A DNA stretch of 64,000 bases from Halocafeteria seosinensis. Taxonomy: Eukaryota. The position numbers and the translations under genes are program-made. The notes beneath the pieces were generated by a model, which saw only the letters and a program-made list of their open reading frames with translations, was not told the DNA's origin and did not search any database. The DNA lies in contig LVLI01000198.1 of NCBI GenBank assembly GCA_001687465.1, forward strand, positions 1 through 64,000. Direction: 5' to 3'. Below are positions 10,038 through 18,871 of the stretch, in pieces (positions within the stretch are counted from its first letter, which is position 1; every line of letters begins with the position of its first letter).

Positions 10038-11902
10038 ATGTCCTCGTGGTCATGTAAGTTTGGTCTCCCCCAGTCCTCAGGTAGCTATCCCTCATTCTGG
10101 TTTTCCATGCTGTGCAGCACCGAGGCGTTCAGGGCCATCATCAGCTGCAGCTAGAGGAGGTGGTGGGAATCGGCTGCAACAAGGTAAAGACTGGCCAGCC
10201 TTCAGAATGTGATGTGATATGATGGAATGGAATGGAATGTTTTTGTTTTGCACAGCTGCTGAAAGGACCCTTTCGGTAGAGGATGCATTGACCTTGTTGA
10301 GACACAAAGGGTTTGATCCCAGTGAGTACAGTGAACTCGTCAATGCTGCTGCTAACGAGGAGGGCGTGATTGACGTCCCGGGGTTGTTGGAATCCTCCGA
10401 GGAGACTGTCCTCACCAAGGTGTTGGCAGATGGTAAGCGATAAAATTGCGCGTGTCCTGATACGTCATGCCGACGAGGAAGCGTGAAATCTGCATGCGCG
10501 CAACAGATCTGGTCATCTCGGATTGGAATTCCTTCACGGCAGACATTCAAGACATCTATGAACATGTAGCCTCCCTCCCGAATTCAGGCAAGAATGCCGA
10601 CTACATCCCCATTTTGGCGGAACAAGATGAAAACGCTTTTACGGTGGCGGTGTGTACTGTGGATGGCCAGAAGTTCTCCTACGGCAATACTGACTCGACC
10701 CACTGCTTCAGTATACAAGCAGGCATCAAGCCCTGGATCTATGCAGCCGCTGTCGAACAGCATGGCTTGAAAAAGGTCCACAGGCATACAGGAATCGAAC
10801 CGAGTGGGCTCGCATTCAACGAAGTTTCACTAAATGCATCGAAACGGCCACATAACCCAATGATAAATGCTGGAGCGATTGCAACTGGGTCCTTGGTACG
10901 CCCCGATCTCGACATGGCTGGGAGATTCCGCTTCTTTAGGAAGCTTCTAACTGATGTTGTTGGTGGAGAGAAAATCGGATTCAGTCAACCCACGTACTTG
11001 TGCGAACAAGAAACAGCCTGGCGGAACAATGCGCTCATGTACTACATGGACAGTGCTGGTATCTTCCCCGAGGATGCAGATCCTCGACAAGCCCTTGACT
11101 TTTACTTCCAGATGTGCTCCATTGAGGTAAATCCTCAAATGGCTGCAAATGCGGCAGCAACACTAGCCACTGGTGGAATTTCGCCTCTGACTGGGAAAAG
11201 GTGCTTCTCCCCTTCCACGGCTAAATCTTGTCTGACGTTGATGTTTAGCTGCGGGATGAATGACTATTCCGGAGAATGGTGCACTAAGATAGGATTGCCT
11301 GCGAAATCAGGAGTAGGCGGAATAGTCTATGTTGTGATACCACACGTTATGGGGATTGCCGTTTATTCTCCGCCAGTAGATGCTCACGGCAACAGTGTAC
11401 GCGCTGTCGAATTCTTCAAACGCTTACTGTCGGAACATCGACTGGGTATTTTTGACCAAGTGGTTTCTGGCATGCAGTCAATGGATATACGACAGAGCAT
11501 GAAGCAGTCTAGGCCAACTCGATCACGGAGCTTATTCGGAGAAATTCCATCAAATTCCGATCGGAAGCCGATGTGTCACTCCACCAAGAGATCCTCGACT
11601 GATGAAGCTAACCCTCGCAGTCCTCTCTGTTTGGACCGAAATTGCTTATCTCAGCTCAATGATTCAGGATCATCGCCTGTTGACAGGTATGAACGCCAGA
11701 AAGGCTTTGTTGGGAAGACAAGCGCGGTGGATGAAGCATGCGCCTCCGGAATGATTTTGGAGAGATGGAAGAACGTGCTTCGGAGAATGGGACGATTAAA
11801 GCGGAATCTACACATGATCCGCGAGTGGTGTCGGCATACGTTTCGTGCTGATATTGACTGGTTTGCTTGTGAAAATCGCATTAATAGACGACCTAGATTA
11901 CG
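10038..11902 (+). CDS. GLS: Two-domain glutaminase-like gene, 5' half (glutaminase domain 1); exons 10038-10053, 10118-10183, 10256-10432, 10507-~11829; interrupted by an insertion
   Basis: Motifs ADYIPILA, VCTVDGQ, TGIEPSG, PHNPMINAGAI, FYFQMCSIEV, GLPAKSGVGG and GNSVR. Three phase-1 introns of 64-74 nt. The 3' boundary is uncertain. Confidence 0.8.
11893..11902 (+). repeat. Left direct repeat CTAGATTACG (TSD/att-core candidate)
   Basis: Exact match to 16321-16330; read as L-D-Y in the open frame at both sites. Confidence 0.75.
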
Positions 11903-12651
11903 AGGAATGGTGTCGGCTGCGGCAACAAGCTGTCACATTGGAGATGGGCGTCGCCCAACTGTCATGGAAAAGCACGCTGCTTGACTACGGACGCCACAAC
12001 ACGTGTTTCCGCTTGAGTGACGTACAGAGGAACGGCTTGCTGGACTTCCGTTTCCGCCACGTTGTGGCGCCGCAATTGAACGCGCAGCAATTCGTGCGTC
12101 CGCCGGCCTGACATCTGTTCTTCGCTCGGAAAGCCTTCCATCCAGTCAGTCAACGCGTACGGTTCGGTGTCGTCCAACGTTTCGGCTATGGGAGGGTTCC
12201 CGTCCTGGAATCGAGATGGGCACTTTACTCTTTGTTCCTTTGGTCTGCACCGAGGCGGGCAAAGAGGCCCGCTATGTGTTTCAACTACACACGGCGACCG
12301 AGACGAACACCTACCGCGTACCGATGGGCAGAAGCGAGCTGACCGATACCGTCTCCGAATGGCTCGACGCTTGTTACGGGGGCTGTGGATTGGGTCTAGG
12401 AGAAGAGGCCAGTTTCCTCGGCATGCTCAAGTCCCCCCATGCGCGCAAAGTTTCTGTCTGCGTTTCCACTCGCGACCGTGTTTTTTCTCGACCAGTCTGT
12501 CCTCCACACGCGTCCGCATGCGTGCCAAAGCACGTTCCTGCTGGACGGTGCGCATGGTGGGAGATGGGTCCTGCAAGAATCTTATGTCCGTAAAACGGAC
12601 GTTCCGCATCTTGCTTTGTTTTATCTGATTTGCGGTCTGCACGGCCATTGA
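11893..12651 (+). CDS. Element gene A, 3' portion (orphan); predicted exons 11893-12093, 12150-12449, 12496-12651
   Basis: Frame open from the left repeat (LDYEEWCRLRQQ...). Phase-0 intron GTGCGT...CTGAC...TCAG (56 nt) and a weaker 46-nt intron link three ORFs. Confidence 0.4.
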
Positions 12652-12732
12652 TTGCGGATCAACCAGCCAGCCGCGATTCTCGTTGGCGGGGGTGGCCGGT
12701 GTCGTTCGGGTTTTCTTTTATCGCATAACGTT

Positions 12733-14207
12733 TTAAATGATGTGCACCACGCATACATCACTTGGAATACATGCGCCGTTGCGGTCCATCACCGTAGCCG
12801 CTTCCTGCATGGGAACCATGGGCGACGTTTCCGCGAATGTCGTCACATACCGTGTCCACGGGACAGGAGATTGTTCCGTCTGGTAGCATTCGTCGCTCAT
12901 ACGTTCCCACTGCGATTGATGATACGCCACGTTGCCCATCGTCGGCCATCGTTCCTCTTGGTACGGAATGGGCGGACGACGATACGCCGAGAGGCGTCTT
13001 CGTCGGACGGACAAACCCGGAGCGTCGCAGTATCGTCGTCGTGCCGGAGTCCCGCTGGTCTATCGCGTGCGGACGAAGCCAGCCACTTTCCGTTTCAGGA
13101 CAATTATCGAAAACTGACGCGACATAACACGCGAAGCGTCAGCAAACATGTCCCATTTCCGCATTCGTTGCATCGATCGTACATTTCCTCGGACGTCTTC
13201 TTTTCGCGGTCGATCAATTGGCGGTTTCACGTGTACCGCAGCGCACGGTGGAAACGGCACCATGCCCAGTTCGCCGGGCACGAACATGCGGAACCAGCCC
13301 CCCGACGAAAAAGCCCTCGCAAACGGAGGCGCGTTTCATTGCCGTAAGCCGAGTACTATACGTATCCTCTTGTGGAGGAAGAAAGACGGACCGCTTACTC
13401 GCACGGCACGATGCGCCTCTCCGTCCGGTTGTACAGTCGCCGTCTCAGGCGTTTTAGACGGCAAGAAAACAGGAAAACTCCGGAAAGGAGGACGGAGAGG
13501 GCGCTGCACATGAAACCGAGCAACTGCTGGCTTAGCGGTAAAATTCGGCCCTGCAGTGTGGCGTACAAAGTCCATCCCCACAGACAAGAGGCAACGAGAA
13601 ATATGTCCGCTGCCCATAAAAAAAGCATCGCCATCAAATGGCTGTGCGGTAGTGTTGTTCCCCACGTGCACGTAGCGTAAAGATAAAAAATTGATGAGGC
13701 AGGTGTACGGAAGCCGAAAGGTTCTTTGCTCCATAAAGTGTAGACAAGGTACACGTTTTCCCAAAACACGACCACAGAACTAGCCAGAATCCATGCAAAA
13801 AGCGATTGTTTCATTGTTTCTTCGAGATCTTGCGTGGGGGGTGCCAGACGGGTGTACAACCGCAATCCCATAGCTCCGGCGTATATGATGGTAGGCGAGA
13901 AAACAACACCTCCCGCAGCTATTCCCCACAAAAGTCCCGCTGAAACGCACAACACTGCGTAGACCGCCAAGAGAAGCCACTGAAAAGGCTTGGCGATGAT
14001 GTTCGCACACGTCTTTAGAAACGACGACGAGCCCCGCGATGATTGCAGCCCCACGAGAGAAAGGGGCTCTTTTTGGGCCAAGTCGGTCAGATGGGCAAAA
14101 AATCGCCGGTAGGTCTCTCCATGGAACGGATTCGGAGGAGGCTCTCGGGCCACGTAAAGACCGTTGTCTGAGGTTACAGGGACGATTCCCACTGTCCCTC
14201 CGTCCAT
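12733..14207 (-). CDS. Element gene B: orphan multi-pass membrane protein; main exon 14207-13399, possible further exons 13355-13247, 13199-13119, 13059-12733
   Basis: ~270-aa exon with about 5-6 hydrophobic segments (e.g. WLLLAVYAVLCVSAGLLWGIAAGGVVF, LFAWILASSVVVFW). A GTAAGC donor overlaps the apparent stop. Three phase-consistent introns of 43, 47 and 59 nt reach the ORF ending at 12733. Confidence 0.5.
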
Positions 14208-14369
14208 AATGAGGAAGTCACCGAGTGGATTCGCAAACAAACGTGCTGTTTTTCTTCTGTGGAACAAAAGTGAGCGTGTCGTCAAAAGGCAGGAAGAAAG
14301 ACGAGATAAAGCAGTGGAAGACCACGCTCTCGCGAACTGGTACAGCCTGGAAATCCCTTTCTCCCCGAA

Positions 14370-15017
14370 ATGAGCGACCGTTTCATCCCCCAGGCGGCGT
14401 CCACGGCGATTGAGCTCATGGAATCGCTTCGCTCGCGCTACAAGCCGCCCAAGACAGGCAAGGCCAAGAAAACGGTGCGGGAGCGTCTGCGGGCCCAGCA
14501 GCCGAACAACGACCACGACAAGATGGAGACGGCGTTGGCCGAACTGCGGCAGTTGCGCGACAGCACTCATTACCGGTACTTTTCCAATCTGGAGTGGCAG
14601 CGCCGCATGACCATTGGCACTAAACGCGGCAAACACGATCGGCGGATGCGTCGATCGTTTGGTATCACGGACGAAGAGTTTGAGACGTACGTCAAAGAAT
14701 TTCAGACCCTCTTGCGCAAGCATTCGGTCACACCCCCTGACGCTGTCTCGCTACCGTCGTCCGCCCAGGGCGCTGACGAGACAGCGTTGCAGCACCCGTC
14801 GGACATCTCGCTGCAGTCGTTCCGGGACGTCCTGTGCGAAGACGGATTGTCCGGGGGAGCAGCGGGAAGCGAAAGATCAAATTGCTCGCGTCCGTCAACG
14901 GCGGCAACGAAATCTCCATTTCGTATCCCGCGATGCAACTTCCTTCAAAACTCCCCCTGTCGGTCGGCTATAACATCGTGGCCATGTCCCTGTACAACCA
15001 TATCAGCTGCCAGCTGA
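14370..15017 (+). CDS. Element orphan ORF, basic/helical N-terminus (possibly the first exon of gene A)
   Basis: 215-aa ORF with GC-rich codons and a K/R-rich N-terminal half (RYKPPKTGKAKKTVRERLR). Its tail overlaps the next ORF in another frame. Confidence 0.5.
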   Translation: MSDRFIPQAASTAIELMESLRSRYKPPKTGKAKKTVRERLRAQQPNNDHDKMETALAELRQLRDSTHYRYFSNLEWQRRMTIGTKRGKHDRRMRRSFGITDEEFETYVKEFQTLLRKHSVTPPDAVSLPSSAQGADETALQHPSDISLQSFRDVLCEDGLSGGAAGSERSNCSRPSTAATKSPFRIPRCNFLQNSPCRSAITSWPCPCTTISAAS

Positions 15018-16320
15018 ACGGTACCAGTTACGCCTACGATTTCCCATCCGCGCAGGTTTCGACGTCGGGCCCATCGAGCATTTCGTACAAAATGGCGCCC
15101 CACATGAATGCCCCCGATGATGATGATGATGATAACGTGTCCCCGGACACGCTGACATTGAAAGGAATGGCGCCCCATGCGTCGTTGTCGGACAGCGCGT
15201 CGATCATCCTCCCGGGCCACAGCTCCGGAACGCAGTTCGAAGCAACGCTGGAGAAAAGTTTCAAAACATTTCCCATCGTCACAGTGGACGGGTTGATGTT
15301 GGACGACCCACGCGTGTACCCACCCTCCGGCTTGTCAAACAAGGGGCAATACTGCTTCTTCTCGGCACAGTCGAGCGATGGAACCTCGGTCTTTTCGATC
15401 TATTACGACGCCGCCAAGAAGAGCTTCATCCTGCAAGCCAACGGAACGGCAAAGCAGCTCAAAGAGCACATCTTTACAGAACTGATGGTGGGGGCGCCCT
15501 CGGCGTTCAACGTGGAGTGGGAATCCCAGCAAGGCGGGTCTCTCTTCCACGTCAAGACGCACCGCGGAGGACCATCGCAGCGATTGACGTTCCCGAACGT
15601 GGCCGCGCCGTCCGCGCCCATCCAGCGCCTCGTTCTGGGGAATGGAGCGAACGCGAAGCACGCTGGACTCGGAATGCGCGTGTTCGGGCGATTCGGCGTG
15701 GCGTTTCCCGGCCAAGCGTTTTACATGTTTTTGCCGAAAACCATCCGGAACAACCGCCACCACAAATCGTTCACGACCAACAACATGTACAAGTGGAACA
15801 AAGGAGAGCTTCACATGTCATCACCCGCCGCGACGCTCCAGTACACCATTGTGCGCTCTGTGTCGTCCAAGGGGGGAGAAGGAGGCGGGGGTGCGTCGCA
15901 GCAGTTCCCGCGCGGAATGCACGGGATTACCCGACCGTCTGCGCGGGCGATGCTGACGGACCCGTCCGGGTCGTCGTCGTCGAGCCACCCCCAAAAACCG
16001 CCGTCGTCGCCCCGGGTGCCGTCGATCGCGATCCCCCAAAAGTGTATGGTTTTTTCTCGGAGAAATTGATCGGCCACAAGCCATGGGTCTCGTTTCCGTT
16101 GCAGATCCGTGCCAACAAAGCGGCGACGTCGGACGTATCGATGCGCTGCCTGGACCGGTGCGACGTTTGTGAAGATTGTCGGACTCGTTCGTTTTGTGTT
16201 TAGCGTGCACGATTCGCGTTGGATTGTACCAAAGCACTCCAAAGAAAAAGTCTCGGCGCGCAAGGGAAGGCTGAGTGTGATACAAATATTGAAGGCGGCG
16301 GTGCGTTCCAATGGATACGG
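14834..16320 (+). CDS. Element gene A, 5'/central portion: orphan, apparently beta-rich protein; predicted exons ~14834-16043, 16105-16157, 16204-16320
   Basis: 411-aa ORF. Introns GTATGG...TTGCAG (61 nt) and GTGCGA...TTTAG (46 nt) carry the frame to the right repeat (...FQWIR-LDY). The start is uncertain. Confidence 0.5.
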
Positions 16321-16330
16321 CTAGATTACG
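16321..16330 (+). repeat. Right direct repeat CTAGATTACG
   Basis: Exact match to 11893-11902. Confidence 0.75.
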
Positions 16331-18375
16331 TTTATAGGTTGCTGGCCGAATGCGGTGTGGGCCCGGTGGATGAGAAACACATGCCCGTGCTGCATTACAC
16401 TCTGAAAAATGTACGTGCTCAGAGCCAGGACATCCTCGAAAAGTTATCGAATGCTGCAAAGAACAGAATCAGAGGAATTGCTACCAAAGGGACTTCAAAG
16501 AAACTAGCAGCAGCCGATTTCGACAGCATCTTGGAAGATTTGATTCCGAAAGCACCGGATGCATTTAACTTTGGATTGGATTTACAAGCCCTCGTATCAA
16601 ATGTTCAAGATTCCTTATTGCGTCGAAGTTGGTATTACCCGTCGGCTACGGAGAGAATCTGGCAAAACACCCGTTTCAAAACGGACTCTGCTCCGGATTT
16701 GACCAAGCGATGTTCGGGTTTCGGAAAAGGCGAATATGTTTACATCCCGTTCCTTTTCGAGGGAGATAGCTCCGGTATTCTTCCCCGCGCATTCTTGAAT
16801 AAAATGGCGTTTCCTTGGTTTAAGTCTTTCTGTGGGGAGATGAGGTCGATTGCCTCAGTAATTAGGAAGGATCTGACCGGAGGTAAACTTCCTGCCGAGG
16901 AAGTGCCCGCTGGGATATCGCGCAAGGAGTCAACAGCTTCTCAGGACACAAGGGCGACTGAAGAGCGAGCACCTAACTGCAAGGGAGCAGTGTACACCGG
17001 AATTCCGATTGAAGAGCTGATAAATGCTGATCCGCAAAACTTTGGAGTCGCCTTTTGTACCATAGACGGACAGCAACACAGCTTTGGTGAATCTCGAATG
17101 GATTTCCCCCTTATGTCTGCTGTACAACCACTTCTTTACAGTCTGGCTCTGAAGGAAGTCGGAGTCAAGGAGACTCAGGCATGGACCGGGACAGAGCCCA
17201 CTAGTACAGATCCGTCATCGTTCTCATTGCGTGAGAACGTCCCTGAGCCACAGTGCTCCGATAAAGGAGTAGAACAACCTTCGCGGATTCCATTCAACCC
17301 GTTTATGGACACAGGGGCCTTGCAAACGTGTGCTCTGATTGGGGGAGCCCAACGGAGCAAGCAGTTTCCTGATGCTGGAAGTCGATTCCTGCATTTGATA
17401 AAGCACATTGGTGCTCTTTGTGGAAACCGACGCGTAGGCTACAACAATAGCGTGTTTTTAGCCCAAAAAGAGAAACGGCTCCAGACGCTGGCGGTCTCAC
17501 ATTTTATGAAAGGCATGGGTGCTTATCCGCGTGACACAGATCCGACGGACAACGCCCATCTACTATTTCAAGCACAAAGCGTCGAACTGAACTGCGAAAA
17601 ACTTTCGATAATCGCCGCTTCCCTGGCGAACTTGGGAGTGTGTCCCACAACAGGCCAACAAGTTCTTGGCAATGAAGAACTGATAAGCCTCTTTTCATTG
17701 ATGTATAACTGTGGCCTTAACCAGTACACTGGCACTTGGACTTTCAACGTCGGTTTACCAGCTACCACTGGTGTTTCTGGTGCATGCATGGTGATAATCC
17801 CCAACATAATGGGCATTGCGATCTACTCTCCGGTACTCAACGAATGGGAAATACCTCCTGCGGCCTTGAAGTTTTGCGAGAGTTTAACGAGCAGGTATAG
17901 GATTAACATTTTTGATCAGTTAGTTTACCGTAATGAGGAGTTAGACATTCGCTCAGTCGAGGAGGAGCATAACGAAGACTTTTCATCTCTGTCAGAGACC
18001 CAGAAGTCTACTCTATTGTTTTTTGAATTGTGTACTTCGGCGAATTCTGGTTCGATAGAAAAAGTGAGACAAGCAATGGAAGCGGGCGTGGACATTAATA
18101 GATGGGACTATGACCGTCGGACAGCGTTACACATTGCAGCTTGCAGTAGCCATGTGGAGATTTCTCAATTGCTAATCAGAGAAGGTGCAAATATCTTGAC
18201 TCGAGATCGGTGGGGAAGCACTCCATTCGATGAAGCTATGCAACATGGTTCAACAGAGTTGATCGAACTTTTTGAGCAGGAGATGGTGCGCCAGAATATC
18301 TCCTCCAAAGGCAGCTTGGCTAGGGGTTTAGCAGGCTCAGGTTCCGCTGACAGGACTGGGGTGTATGGCCGATGA
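16321..18375 (+). CDS. GLS: Two-domain glutaminase-like gene, 3' half (degenerate glutaminase domain 2 plus ankyrin repeats)
   Basis: Motifs FGVAFCTIDGQ, GTEPT, PFNPFMDTGAL, GLPATTGVSG and IPNIMGIAIYSP. Ankyrin motifs DYDRRTALHIAAC and DRWGSTPFDEA as in kidney-type GLS. The ORF-track start at 16219 is a TTG, not an ATG. Confidence 0.8.
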   Translation, partial: LDYVYRLLAECGVGPVDEKHMPVLHYTLKNVRAQSQDILEKLSNAAKNRIRGIATKGTSKKLAAADFDSILEDLIPKAPDAFNFGLDLQALVSNVQDSLLRRSWYYPSATERIWQNTRFKTDSAPDLTKRCSGFGKGEYVYIPFLFEGDSSGILPRAFLNKMAFPWFKSFCGEMRSIASVIRKDLTGGKLPAEEVPAGISRKESTASQDTRATEERAPNCKGAVYTGIPIEELINADPQNFGVAFCTIDGQQHSFGESRMDFPLMSAVQPLLYSLALKEVGVKETQAWTGTEPTSTDPSSFSLRENVPEPQCSDKGVEQPSRIPFNPFMDTGALQTCALIGGAQRSKQFPDAGSRFLHLIKHIGALCGNRRVGYNNSVFLAQKEKRLQTLAVSHFMKGMGAYPRDTDPTDNAHLLFQAQSVELNCEKLSIIAASLANLGVCPTTGQQVLGNEELISLFSLMYNCGLNQYTGTWTFNVGLPATTGVSGACMVIIPNIMGIAIYSPVLNEWEIPPAALKFCESLTSRYRINIFDQLVYRNEELDIRSVEEEHNEDFSSLSETQKSTLLFFELCTSANSGSIEKVRQAMEAGVDINRWDYDRRTALHIAACSSHVEISQLLIREGANILTRDRWGSTPFDEAMQHGSTELIELFEQEMVRQNISSKGSLARGLAGSGSADRTGVYGR

Positions 18376-18871
18376 TTCGGTGTCAGTGTGGTCGCAAGTT
18401 CCTTTAGGGCGAGGACACCATTTACCGATAACTCTCCGCCAGTAGTTGCTCACGGTAACAGACAGCGAACGCGCGGTGCGTCTCCGCAACATCCGGCACA
18501 TTGAAACTGGGTCGTGTTGGGGAGACCTAGGCGTAGGCGCAGTGCTACCATGTATGTACGCGGCGTCGGTTAGTGTAAATCGTTTCCTTGGTGCTGTTGG
18601 TGGTGTGTACGAACTCTCCCCTTGCACAACAAAAACGGAAGCGTCTCGTCCTGTGCTATGGAAAAACACACGAAGGCGAGAGATGTCAACTGAGATGGTA
18701 GACTTGATATTCCCTTTCTGTGCGTGCCTTAACTGAACGCTATGCTGACAACTTATCTATGTAATTGACCAGTATTGAATCACACGACGTATACTACCAC
18801 TACTACCCTCACGCCACGCGGAGCGCAATCTTCCTGACTGCTGACTGACACCGACACGAAATCTGTGGGTT

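Follow-up and report, generated by a model that had tools for sequence, protein, structure and literature searches.

The 64,000-nucleotide window analysed here (the whole stretch under study, contig LVLI01000198.1 of Halocafeteria seosinensis) is eukaryotic in character, gene-dense, with a GC content of about 0.47 and short GT-AG introns, and the host is probably single-celled. At positions 11893-16330 it carries a 4.4-kb orphan foreign insert, present as a single copy, which interrupts a host glutaminase-like gene. An original prediction had taken this insert for a circularly permuted small genome with one gene cut at the junction. With this in mind, we compared the open reading frames (ORFs) of the element with contigs from four runs (X1-X4) of one study. 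X1 is unspliced and of DNA type; X2-X4, from two samples, were called RNA-type solely because they skip three GT-AG introns. Contigs of all four runs drop rare forms and show neither strand nor true transcript start. Further copies of the element were sought in the window and, at a likeness of at least 80%, in the contigs of the four runs, and none was found in either. A literature search did not find a report of such an element, although supplements lay outside this search and absence is not proven by it.

The interrupted host gene and the edges of the insert

The insert differs from its surroundings in composition. Its GC content (0.566) and observed/expected CpG ratio (1.28) lie outside the range of all 12 host blocks (0.444-0.488 and 0.82-1.03), and third-position GC content (GC3) is 0.79 in ORF A and 0.75 in ORF B, versus 0.43-0.51 in 10 host ORFs read in frame (an eleventh, out of frame, was dropped). 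As predicted, a direct repeat brackets this foreign composition: the exact 10-mer CTAGATTACG occurs twice in the window, at 11893 and 16321 (Table 1). Markov change points place the left edge at 11900-11945, where it meets the repeat. Misassembly is unlikely, since one DNA-type contig (X1) crosses both junctions letter for letter, save for an inverted 63-bp segment. On either side of the left junction lies a second exact 10-mer, TGGTGTCGGC (11826-11835 and 11908-11917, 82 bp apart), which codes for W-C-R in both the host frame and the element frame and may be chance or the trace of a repair event.

Table 1. Features of the insert and of the host gene around it (window coordinates)
Feature	Position	Strand	Basis
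Host 5' half: glutaminase-like unit 1 and linker, three introns near 10054-10506	10038..11892	+	Pfam Glutaminase, E 3.8e-95
Left direct-repeat copy CTAGATTACG, 10 bp	11893-11902	+	exact match
Headless frame +1 ORF, 72 codons, likely 3' part of cut gene	11893..12111	+	no ATG at or before repeat
Broken continuation of junction gene, or further small ORFs	12021..12651	+	stop map
Frame in three open pieces (13779-13341, 13335-13063, 13059-12736), split by TGA and TAG	12733..13394	-	stop map
Orphan 270-aa (amino acid) membrane protein, five predicted transmembrane segments	13395..14207	-	hydropathy
11-bp inverted repeat around 63-bp segment (13427-13489)	13416..13500	.	inverted in X1 contig
Divergent spacer, 162 bp	14208..14369	.	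folding z +1.10 at 14190-14400, unremarkable
ORF A, 215 aa, basic N-terminus	14370..15017	+	GC3 0.79, frame scores
ORF B, a beta-rich orphan of up to 411 aa	14834..16069	+	GC3 0.75
Likely transcription start, toward right junction (strand inferred)	16064..16071	+	contig starts
Likely 5' part of junction gene: first ATG 16083 (gccATGG), frame +1 open into repeat	16083..16320	+	
Candidate GT-AG intron, 46 nt	16158-16203	+	kept in contigs
Right direct-repeat copy CTAGATTACG, 10 bp	16321-16330	+	exact match
Host 3' half: glutaminase-like unit 2 and ankyrin repeats, frame intact	16331..18375	+	

The three introns skipped by X2-X4 are those of the host 5' half (near 10054-10506), which today reads on into the insert as far as a stop at 11982-84 (578 aa); its linker matches only itself in a near-length protein search. 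The 3' half is listed in EukProt as a separate protein of 664 aa, a length that fits a start at ATG 16381. This separate entry, and the fact that no empty site was seen in contigs, would also suit a locus without any insertion, where native or old laterally acquired genes lie between two glutaminase paralogues, or an assembly error. We consider this very improbable, however, given the sharp compositional outlier, the contigs of four runs that cross the junctions, the lack of ankyrins in half 1 and a half 2 transcript that starts in foreign-looking DNA.

In alignments with human GLS, unit 1 (10509-11500) carries Ala for the Ser of S-x-x-K and unit 2 (17000-17930) carries Gln for the Lys, which we take to be the catalytic residues of glutaminase. 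Both host domains thus look catalytically dead from their sequences, and the pair may act as a pseudo-enzyme sensor. Just past the gene, a short high-copy repeat at 18518-18600 (summed bin depth 72-515), from which many contigs run into unrelated DNA in all four runs, is possibly the end of a small mobile element.

Reading frames, transcripts and orphan genes of the insert

Much of the predicted layout was recovered. The ATGs at 14370 (+) and 14207 (-) open divergent units with 162 bp between them, and the stops that face one another lie at 12649-51 (+) and at 12733-35 (-). Both ends of the insert read the repeat in one frame, frame +1 giving L-D-Y at 11893 and at 16321; this frame is open over 11818-12108 and 16204-16330, has no ATG at or before the repeat on the left and no stop on the right. 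The continuous joined ORF reaching about 12651, and with it the single gene of 650-700 aa from 14370, did not survive closer inspection. TAG at 16201 and TGA at 12109 limit the open frame across the join to 39 + 72 = 111 codons, and the + path from 14370 through the join to 12651 requires at least five stops or shifts, the - path from 14207 to 12733 at least three. Codon scores show the coding signal of ORF A ending near 14840, where the ORF B frame takes over at a G5 run, and ORF B yielding to frame +1 near 16045. Since RNA-type contigs remove no intron where they cover the insert, introns do not explain these breaks in the majority form. Programmed frameshifting was also considered: three frame changes fall at runs (G5, T6 and C6), and the insert holds 27 runs of at least five. 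The five breaks, together with a further start that is likely near 16065, argue for several genes from 14370 on and not for one.

This start was derived from RNA-type contigs beginning at 16071 (X2), 16064 (X3) and 16071 (X4), all of which cross the right junction into host half 2 (depth 91.6, 23.4 and 13, respectively). No X2-X4 contig covers 15753-16063, and ORFs A and B are represented by short pieces at depth 3-9. Contigs of host half 1 read across the left junction unspliced, and for host half 2 the contigs show no start of a separate transcript except within high-GC3 DNA. A promoter inside the element near 16064-16071 is likely, and we put it no higher because contigs give neither strand nor true start. 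The first ATG past this start, at 16083, has a strong sequence context. From ATG 16083 (GC3 of frame +1 0.80 over 16083-16157), use of the 46-nt intron would yield a 748-aa fusion here and a protein of 136 or 273 aa on the circle; the unspliced frame gives 29 aa. The headless ORF at the left end has a GC3 of 0.68 at 11903-12016 and 0.79 at 12017-12087. The cut gene would hence be a separate unit with its start on the right and its body on the left, which favours permutation and not the 650-700-aa gene.

The genes of the insert are orphans. No credible homologue of ORF B or the membrane ORF was found among 5.8 billion proteins of near lengths, or of ORF B among 1.84 billion representatives; the viral, metagenome, genome, phage and plasmid collections gave no homologue of the element ORFs, those searched for the end pieces none of these, and Pfam, PHROGs and NCBIfam no credible match to the element ORFs, nor a family match to the headless left-end ORF. 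Single-sequence structure models were too poor for a fold search. A stop-free run of at least 270 codons, as in the membrane ORF, arose in 1 of 500 shuffles. Its Atlas recognition is 2474, with a feature score of 0.95 to bacterial-protein clusters that have no common Pfam family, and no sequence homologue was found; matches of a short enterotoxin model fell below cut-off and were judged chance. The 63-bp segment within this ORF is inverted in X1 relative to the window and X2-X4, through a real flip or a library artefact; the 270-aa ORF stays open both ways, one orientation replacing the end of the last hydrophobic helix by a charged tail.

For ORF A, no significant match was obtained and an endonuclease VII hint (E 0.47) was not upheld. 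ORF B scores 0.93 in the Atlas to unnamed clusters, some of them phage, and 0.91 to Laminin_G_3, with a weak recognition of 2123; as a weak lead, it is possibly a ConA-like/laminin-G attachment protein. Its structure model is too low in quality (predicted local distance difference test, pLDDT, 33) to bear on a jelly-roll capsid, and matched nothing at E<=0.001 or Z>=5; a match to an RCC1-repeat protein (36 residues, matched through repeats) was rejected, and no true homologue was found in the searches described. In the region 12021..12651, frame 0 is open over 12021-12590, frame +2 over 12080-12625, and frame +1 stops at 12649-51 (structure model pLDDT 38.9, best Z 4.7). The - frame at 12733..13394, without a family match, is a decayed gene, a set of overlapping ORFs or a long 3' region. 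Antisense to it, the + strand of 12820-12939 folds strongly (z -6.9, 12 shuffles) and has no Rfam match; a 12-shuffle folding scan flagged + strand windows at 12180, 12820 and 14820.

The predicted lack of any known hallmark gene agrees with the family searches. No Walker A motif ([GA]x4GK[ST]) occurs in six frames. Scanned ORF pieces gave no Pfam, NCBIfam or PHROG match to an HUH replication protein (Rep) or superfamily 3 (SF3) helicase, although decay could hide a very distant Rep, and polyomavirus large T (J domain, SF3 helicase) and VP1 had no Pfam match. The nonanucleotide NANTATTAC has 0 matches on either strand, an 8-nt look-alike lying within the repeat only. For reverse transcriptase (RT), there was no Pfam match, and a profile of 24 bacterial sequences scored below 0 bits on six joins and ends and in six frames. 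Rfam, searched to E 10, returned only IRES_Bip and sR5, both under cut-off; hammerhead and hairpin ribozyme cores were absent by pattern. A structured spacer was not found, and among the 25 longest of 209 inverted pairs none joins the ends as inverted terminal repeats would. Motifs at the junction had pointed to a tyrosine recombinase (YR), RNA-dependent RNA polymerase (RdRp) or RT, readings that the profiles did not bear out: a 27-sequence prokaryotic recombinase profile gave at most 0.5 bits on all joins tried, and palm profiles scored below 0 bits. MS2 replicase, taken as a control, is detected by the mitovirus-like profile (17.2 bits). The recombinase profile was prokaryotic and the RdRp profiles mitovirus-like and levivirus.

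Entry of the insert into the host gene

Excision of 11893-16330, that is, of both repeat copies (4438 bp), yields one host ORF of 1229 aa with no intron, filler or loss, and this breakpoint is singled out by both cuts falling at the outer edges of the repeat. If one copy is kept, a host stop follows two codons past the repeat, leaving a 553-aa ORF. Because the one-copy empty site stops and two-copy removal restores 1229 aa, the repeat is more likely a terminal redundancy of the element itself. The originally proposed single crossover, in which a 4428-bp circle enters via a 10-bp core common to the host and the empty site keeps one copy, appears improbable in this light. The exact repeat is indeed the longest microhomology among 2891 breakpoint classes, and the T-rich stretch 11830-11892 (GC3 0.24) is intron-like. 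However, the empty site stops at 553 aa unless a weak-donor intron such as the 58-nt 11830-11887 is used; the rescuing introns have donors GTCGGC or GTGCTG, versus GTAAG and GTAAA in the three seen host introns, and are kept in contigs of all three RNA-type runs, and a recombinase was not detected.

We thus tentatively prefer to see in the 4438-bp insert a circular replicon of 4428 bp (small virus, satellite or plasmid) in linear form, opened within its own gene and terminally redundant. A circle of 4428 bp would have been opened inside one of its genes with a 10-nt stagger, and the resulting linear form would keep the 10-bp repeat at both ends and could have been taken up by end joining where a chromosome had broken. 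At the right end, the cut gene's promoter and start would now drive the second half of the host gene, with the first half reading into the left end of the element; both halves may have been kept open because both are transcribed. The 5 + 3 stops and shifts would mostly be decay after capture. No free circle was seen and the element genes are broken. Neither circle junction nor empty site is listed among the contigs of the four runs, all of one study and liable to drop rare forms, which speaks against the present-day episome of the original prediction; the element is likely fixed by now and not excising.

Several observations weigh against a circular origin by terminal redundancy. The searches turned up no gene for replication, integration or a capsid. 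The right edge is loosely fixed by composition (Markov change points, 16165-16390), codon-phase models place it near 16205-16230, and 16204-16320, where GC3 is 0.44 for the joined frame as against 0.59 for frame +2, looks at least as much like host coding as like element coding. The 46-nt intron needed by ATG 16083 is not removed in contigs. Restoration of the host frame is a 1-in-3 event, achieved by 956 of 2891 breakpoint classes, and the 10-bp repeat by itself is modest evidence (chance 0.4-2.3%): 116 of 5000 random zone pairs of 150x180 nt, and 18 of 5000 of 60x60 nt, share a 10-mer. Since the joined protein has no homologue, the case for permutation is built on strand, repeat and a frame match of 1-in-3 odds. 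Finally, among 13 models, which left out the one with both copies removed, a join 7 nt left of the repeat aligned best, if weakly, with the N-terminus of host unit 1 (13 vs <=5).

Several of these points also suit the end joining of a linear slice from some larger foreign genome (a giant virus, a polinton-like virus or another donor), with a repeat due to chance or target duplication and a frame match that arose by chance or was kept for expression of host half 2. The 17 exact repeats of at least 10 bases within 11700-16500, one of them joining the two host flanks (11725/16364), the frequency of shared 10-mers and the poorly fixed right edge fit such a slice, as do the mixed GC3 among genes (0.79, 0.75, 0.58), the overlapping unspliced ORFs, the phage and bacterial clusters among Atlas neighbours and the missing replication gene. 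In a slice, however, repeat, strand and frame would all have to agree by coincidence, along with a host ORF restored exactly at the outer edges of the repeat, and a larger donor was not found in the collections searched; we hold it to be rather unlikely, yet a serious competitor.

Shifted leftward by 7 nt from the repeat, the join (circle of 4435 bp) creates a Y-G-D-D polymerase motif and would make the insert complementary DNA (cDNA) of an ambivirus-like circular RNA virus. With this join the host ORF (1230 aa) and the element frame, from +2 to +1, are both open, and at the right end the frame of higher GC3 is the one used; GDD and G-x6-K[ST] lie 18 residues apart, as in 17 of 68 reference palms (19 in 48), and size and ambisense layout resemble those of ambiviruses (~5 kb; PMC10162972). 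Against this, profiles built from 68 mitovirus-like, 16 levivirus and 24 RT palms all scored below 0 bits, the motif C-D matrix gave -26.8 bits where the lowest training score was 44.2 (of 127720 positions in the window, 298 do as well or better), no ribozyme was found by the Rfam and pattern searches and the 10-mer is left unexplained, so that we give this origin very little credence.

Altogether, summed over terminal redundancy, single crossover and RNA-virus cDNA, a circular origin of some kind is moderately favoured. The predicted circle with a gene cut at its junction stays the leading reading, backed by the matching frames, the left end in mid-frame and a likely start at ~16065; the single crossover, the single gene and the present episome are not supported. 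More doubtful is the full proposal that the insert is a whole once-circular genome from a class of protist viruses or plasmids that is small (4.4 kb) and so far undescribed, lacking any known type of Rep, RdRp, RT or integrase and encoding five-helix membrane and lectin-like proteins, whose capture via a terminally redundant linear form split the host gene and supplied the promoter of its second half. Virus and plasmid discovery depends on hallmark genes; if true, an all-orphan, unit-length element recognised by its ends would provide seed sequences for a class that hallmark searches miss. The locus also presents a clean case of a gene split by an insertion, where the orphaned half likely takes its promoter from the foreign DNA. 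Were the insert only a linear slice, it would count as an ordinary lateral one, if unidentifiable.

Comparison with known systems

On integration, the gene of SSV1-type integrases is split by its own attachment (att) site. The element resembles this arrangement in having a gene cut in two with the halves at its two ends; it differs in that the tyrosine-recombinase profile scored about 0 bits on every join tried. The nonanucleotide of circular Rep-encoding single-stranded (CRESS) DNA viruses is TAGTATTAC, and the repeat contains TAGATTAC, one base short of it. The likeness to gemini-, circo- and polyomaviruses that had been drawn holds for the layout and fails for the hallmark genes, which were not found in the searches above. 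Endogenous protist CRESS-DNA sequences, as described in PMC3198968, are likewise small, with genes in two directions, insertion into a protist-type genome and some transcription, but our element has no Rep, Walker A motif, true nonanucleotide or capsid match.

Ambiviruses are ~5 kb in size and ambisense according to PMC10162972; the element is of similar size, ambisense and, by inference, circular, but shows no RdRp signal in the profiles used and no paired ribozymes and has several ORFs instead of two. With virophages, polinton-like viruses (PLVs) and the flagellate Ngaro elements (PMC8547959, PMC12220804) it shares the foreign GC content of an insert in a protist genome. It is unlike them in length (4.4 kb vs 14-40 kb), in the lack of terminal inverted repeats, split direct repeats and any YR, RT, capsid or ATPase match, and in being single-copy at a likeness of at least 80%. 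Given that no homologue, ribozyme, nonanucleotide or Walker A motif was found, the element cannot be assigned to CRESS viruses, ambiviruses, virophages, PLVs or Ngaro.

The closest parallel in geometry may be integrated hepatitis B virus (HBV). The element differs from hepadnaviruses in its genes on both strands, its 4.4 kb, its protist-type host and the absence of RT, core and surface homologues from our searches; it is not a hepadnavirus, and the likeness, drawn by analogy, would be one of manner of working. According to PMC5408681, HBV double-stranded linear DNA exceeds unit length by ~16 nt, enters at breaks without a dedicated integrase and separates ORFs from their promoters, and a stop-less X ORF runs into host DNA to give fusion transcripts. 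The empty site is not among the contigs of the four runs, and the over-unit-length geometry fits: as in integrated HBV (same paper), we propose here a linear form of a circle that slightly exceeds unit length, inserted without an integrase of its own, with a stop-less ORF running into the host gene and element ORFs parted from their promoters.

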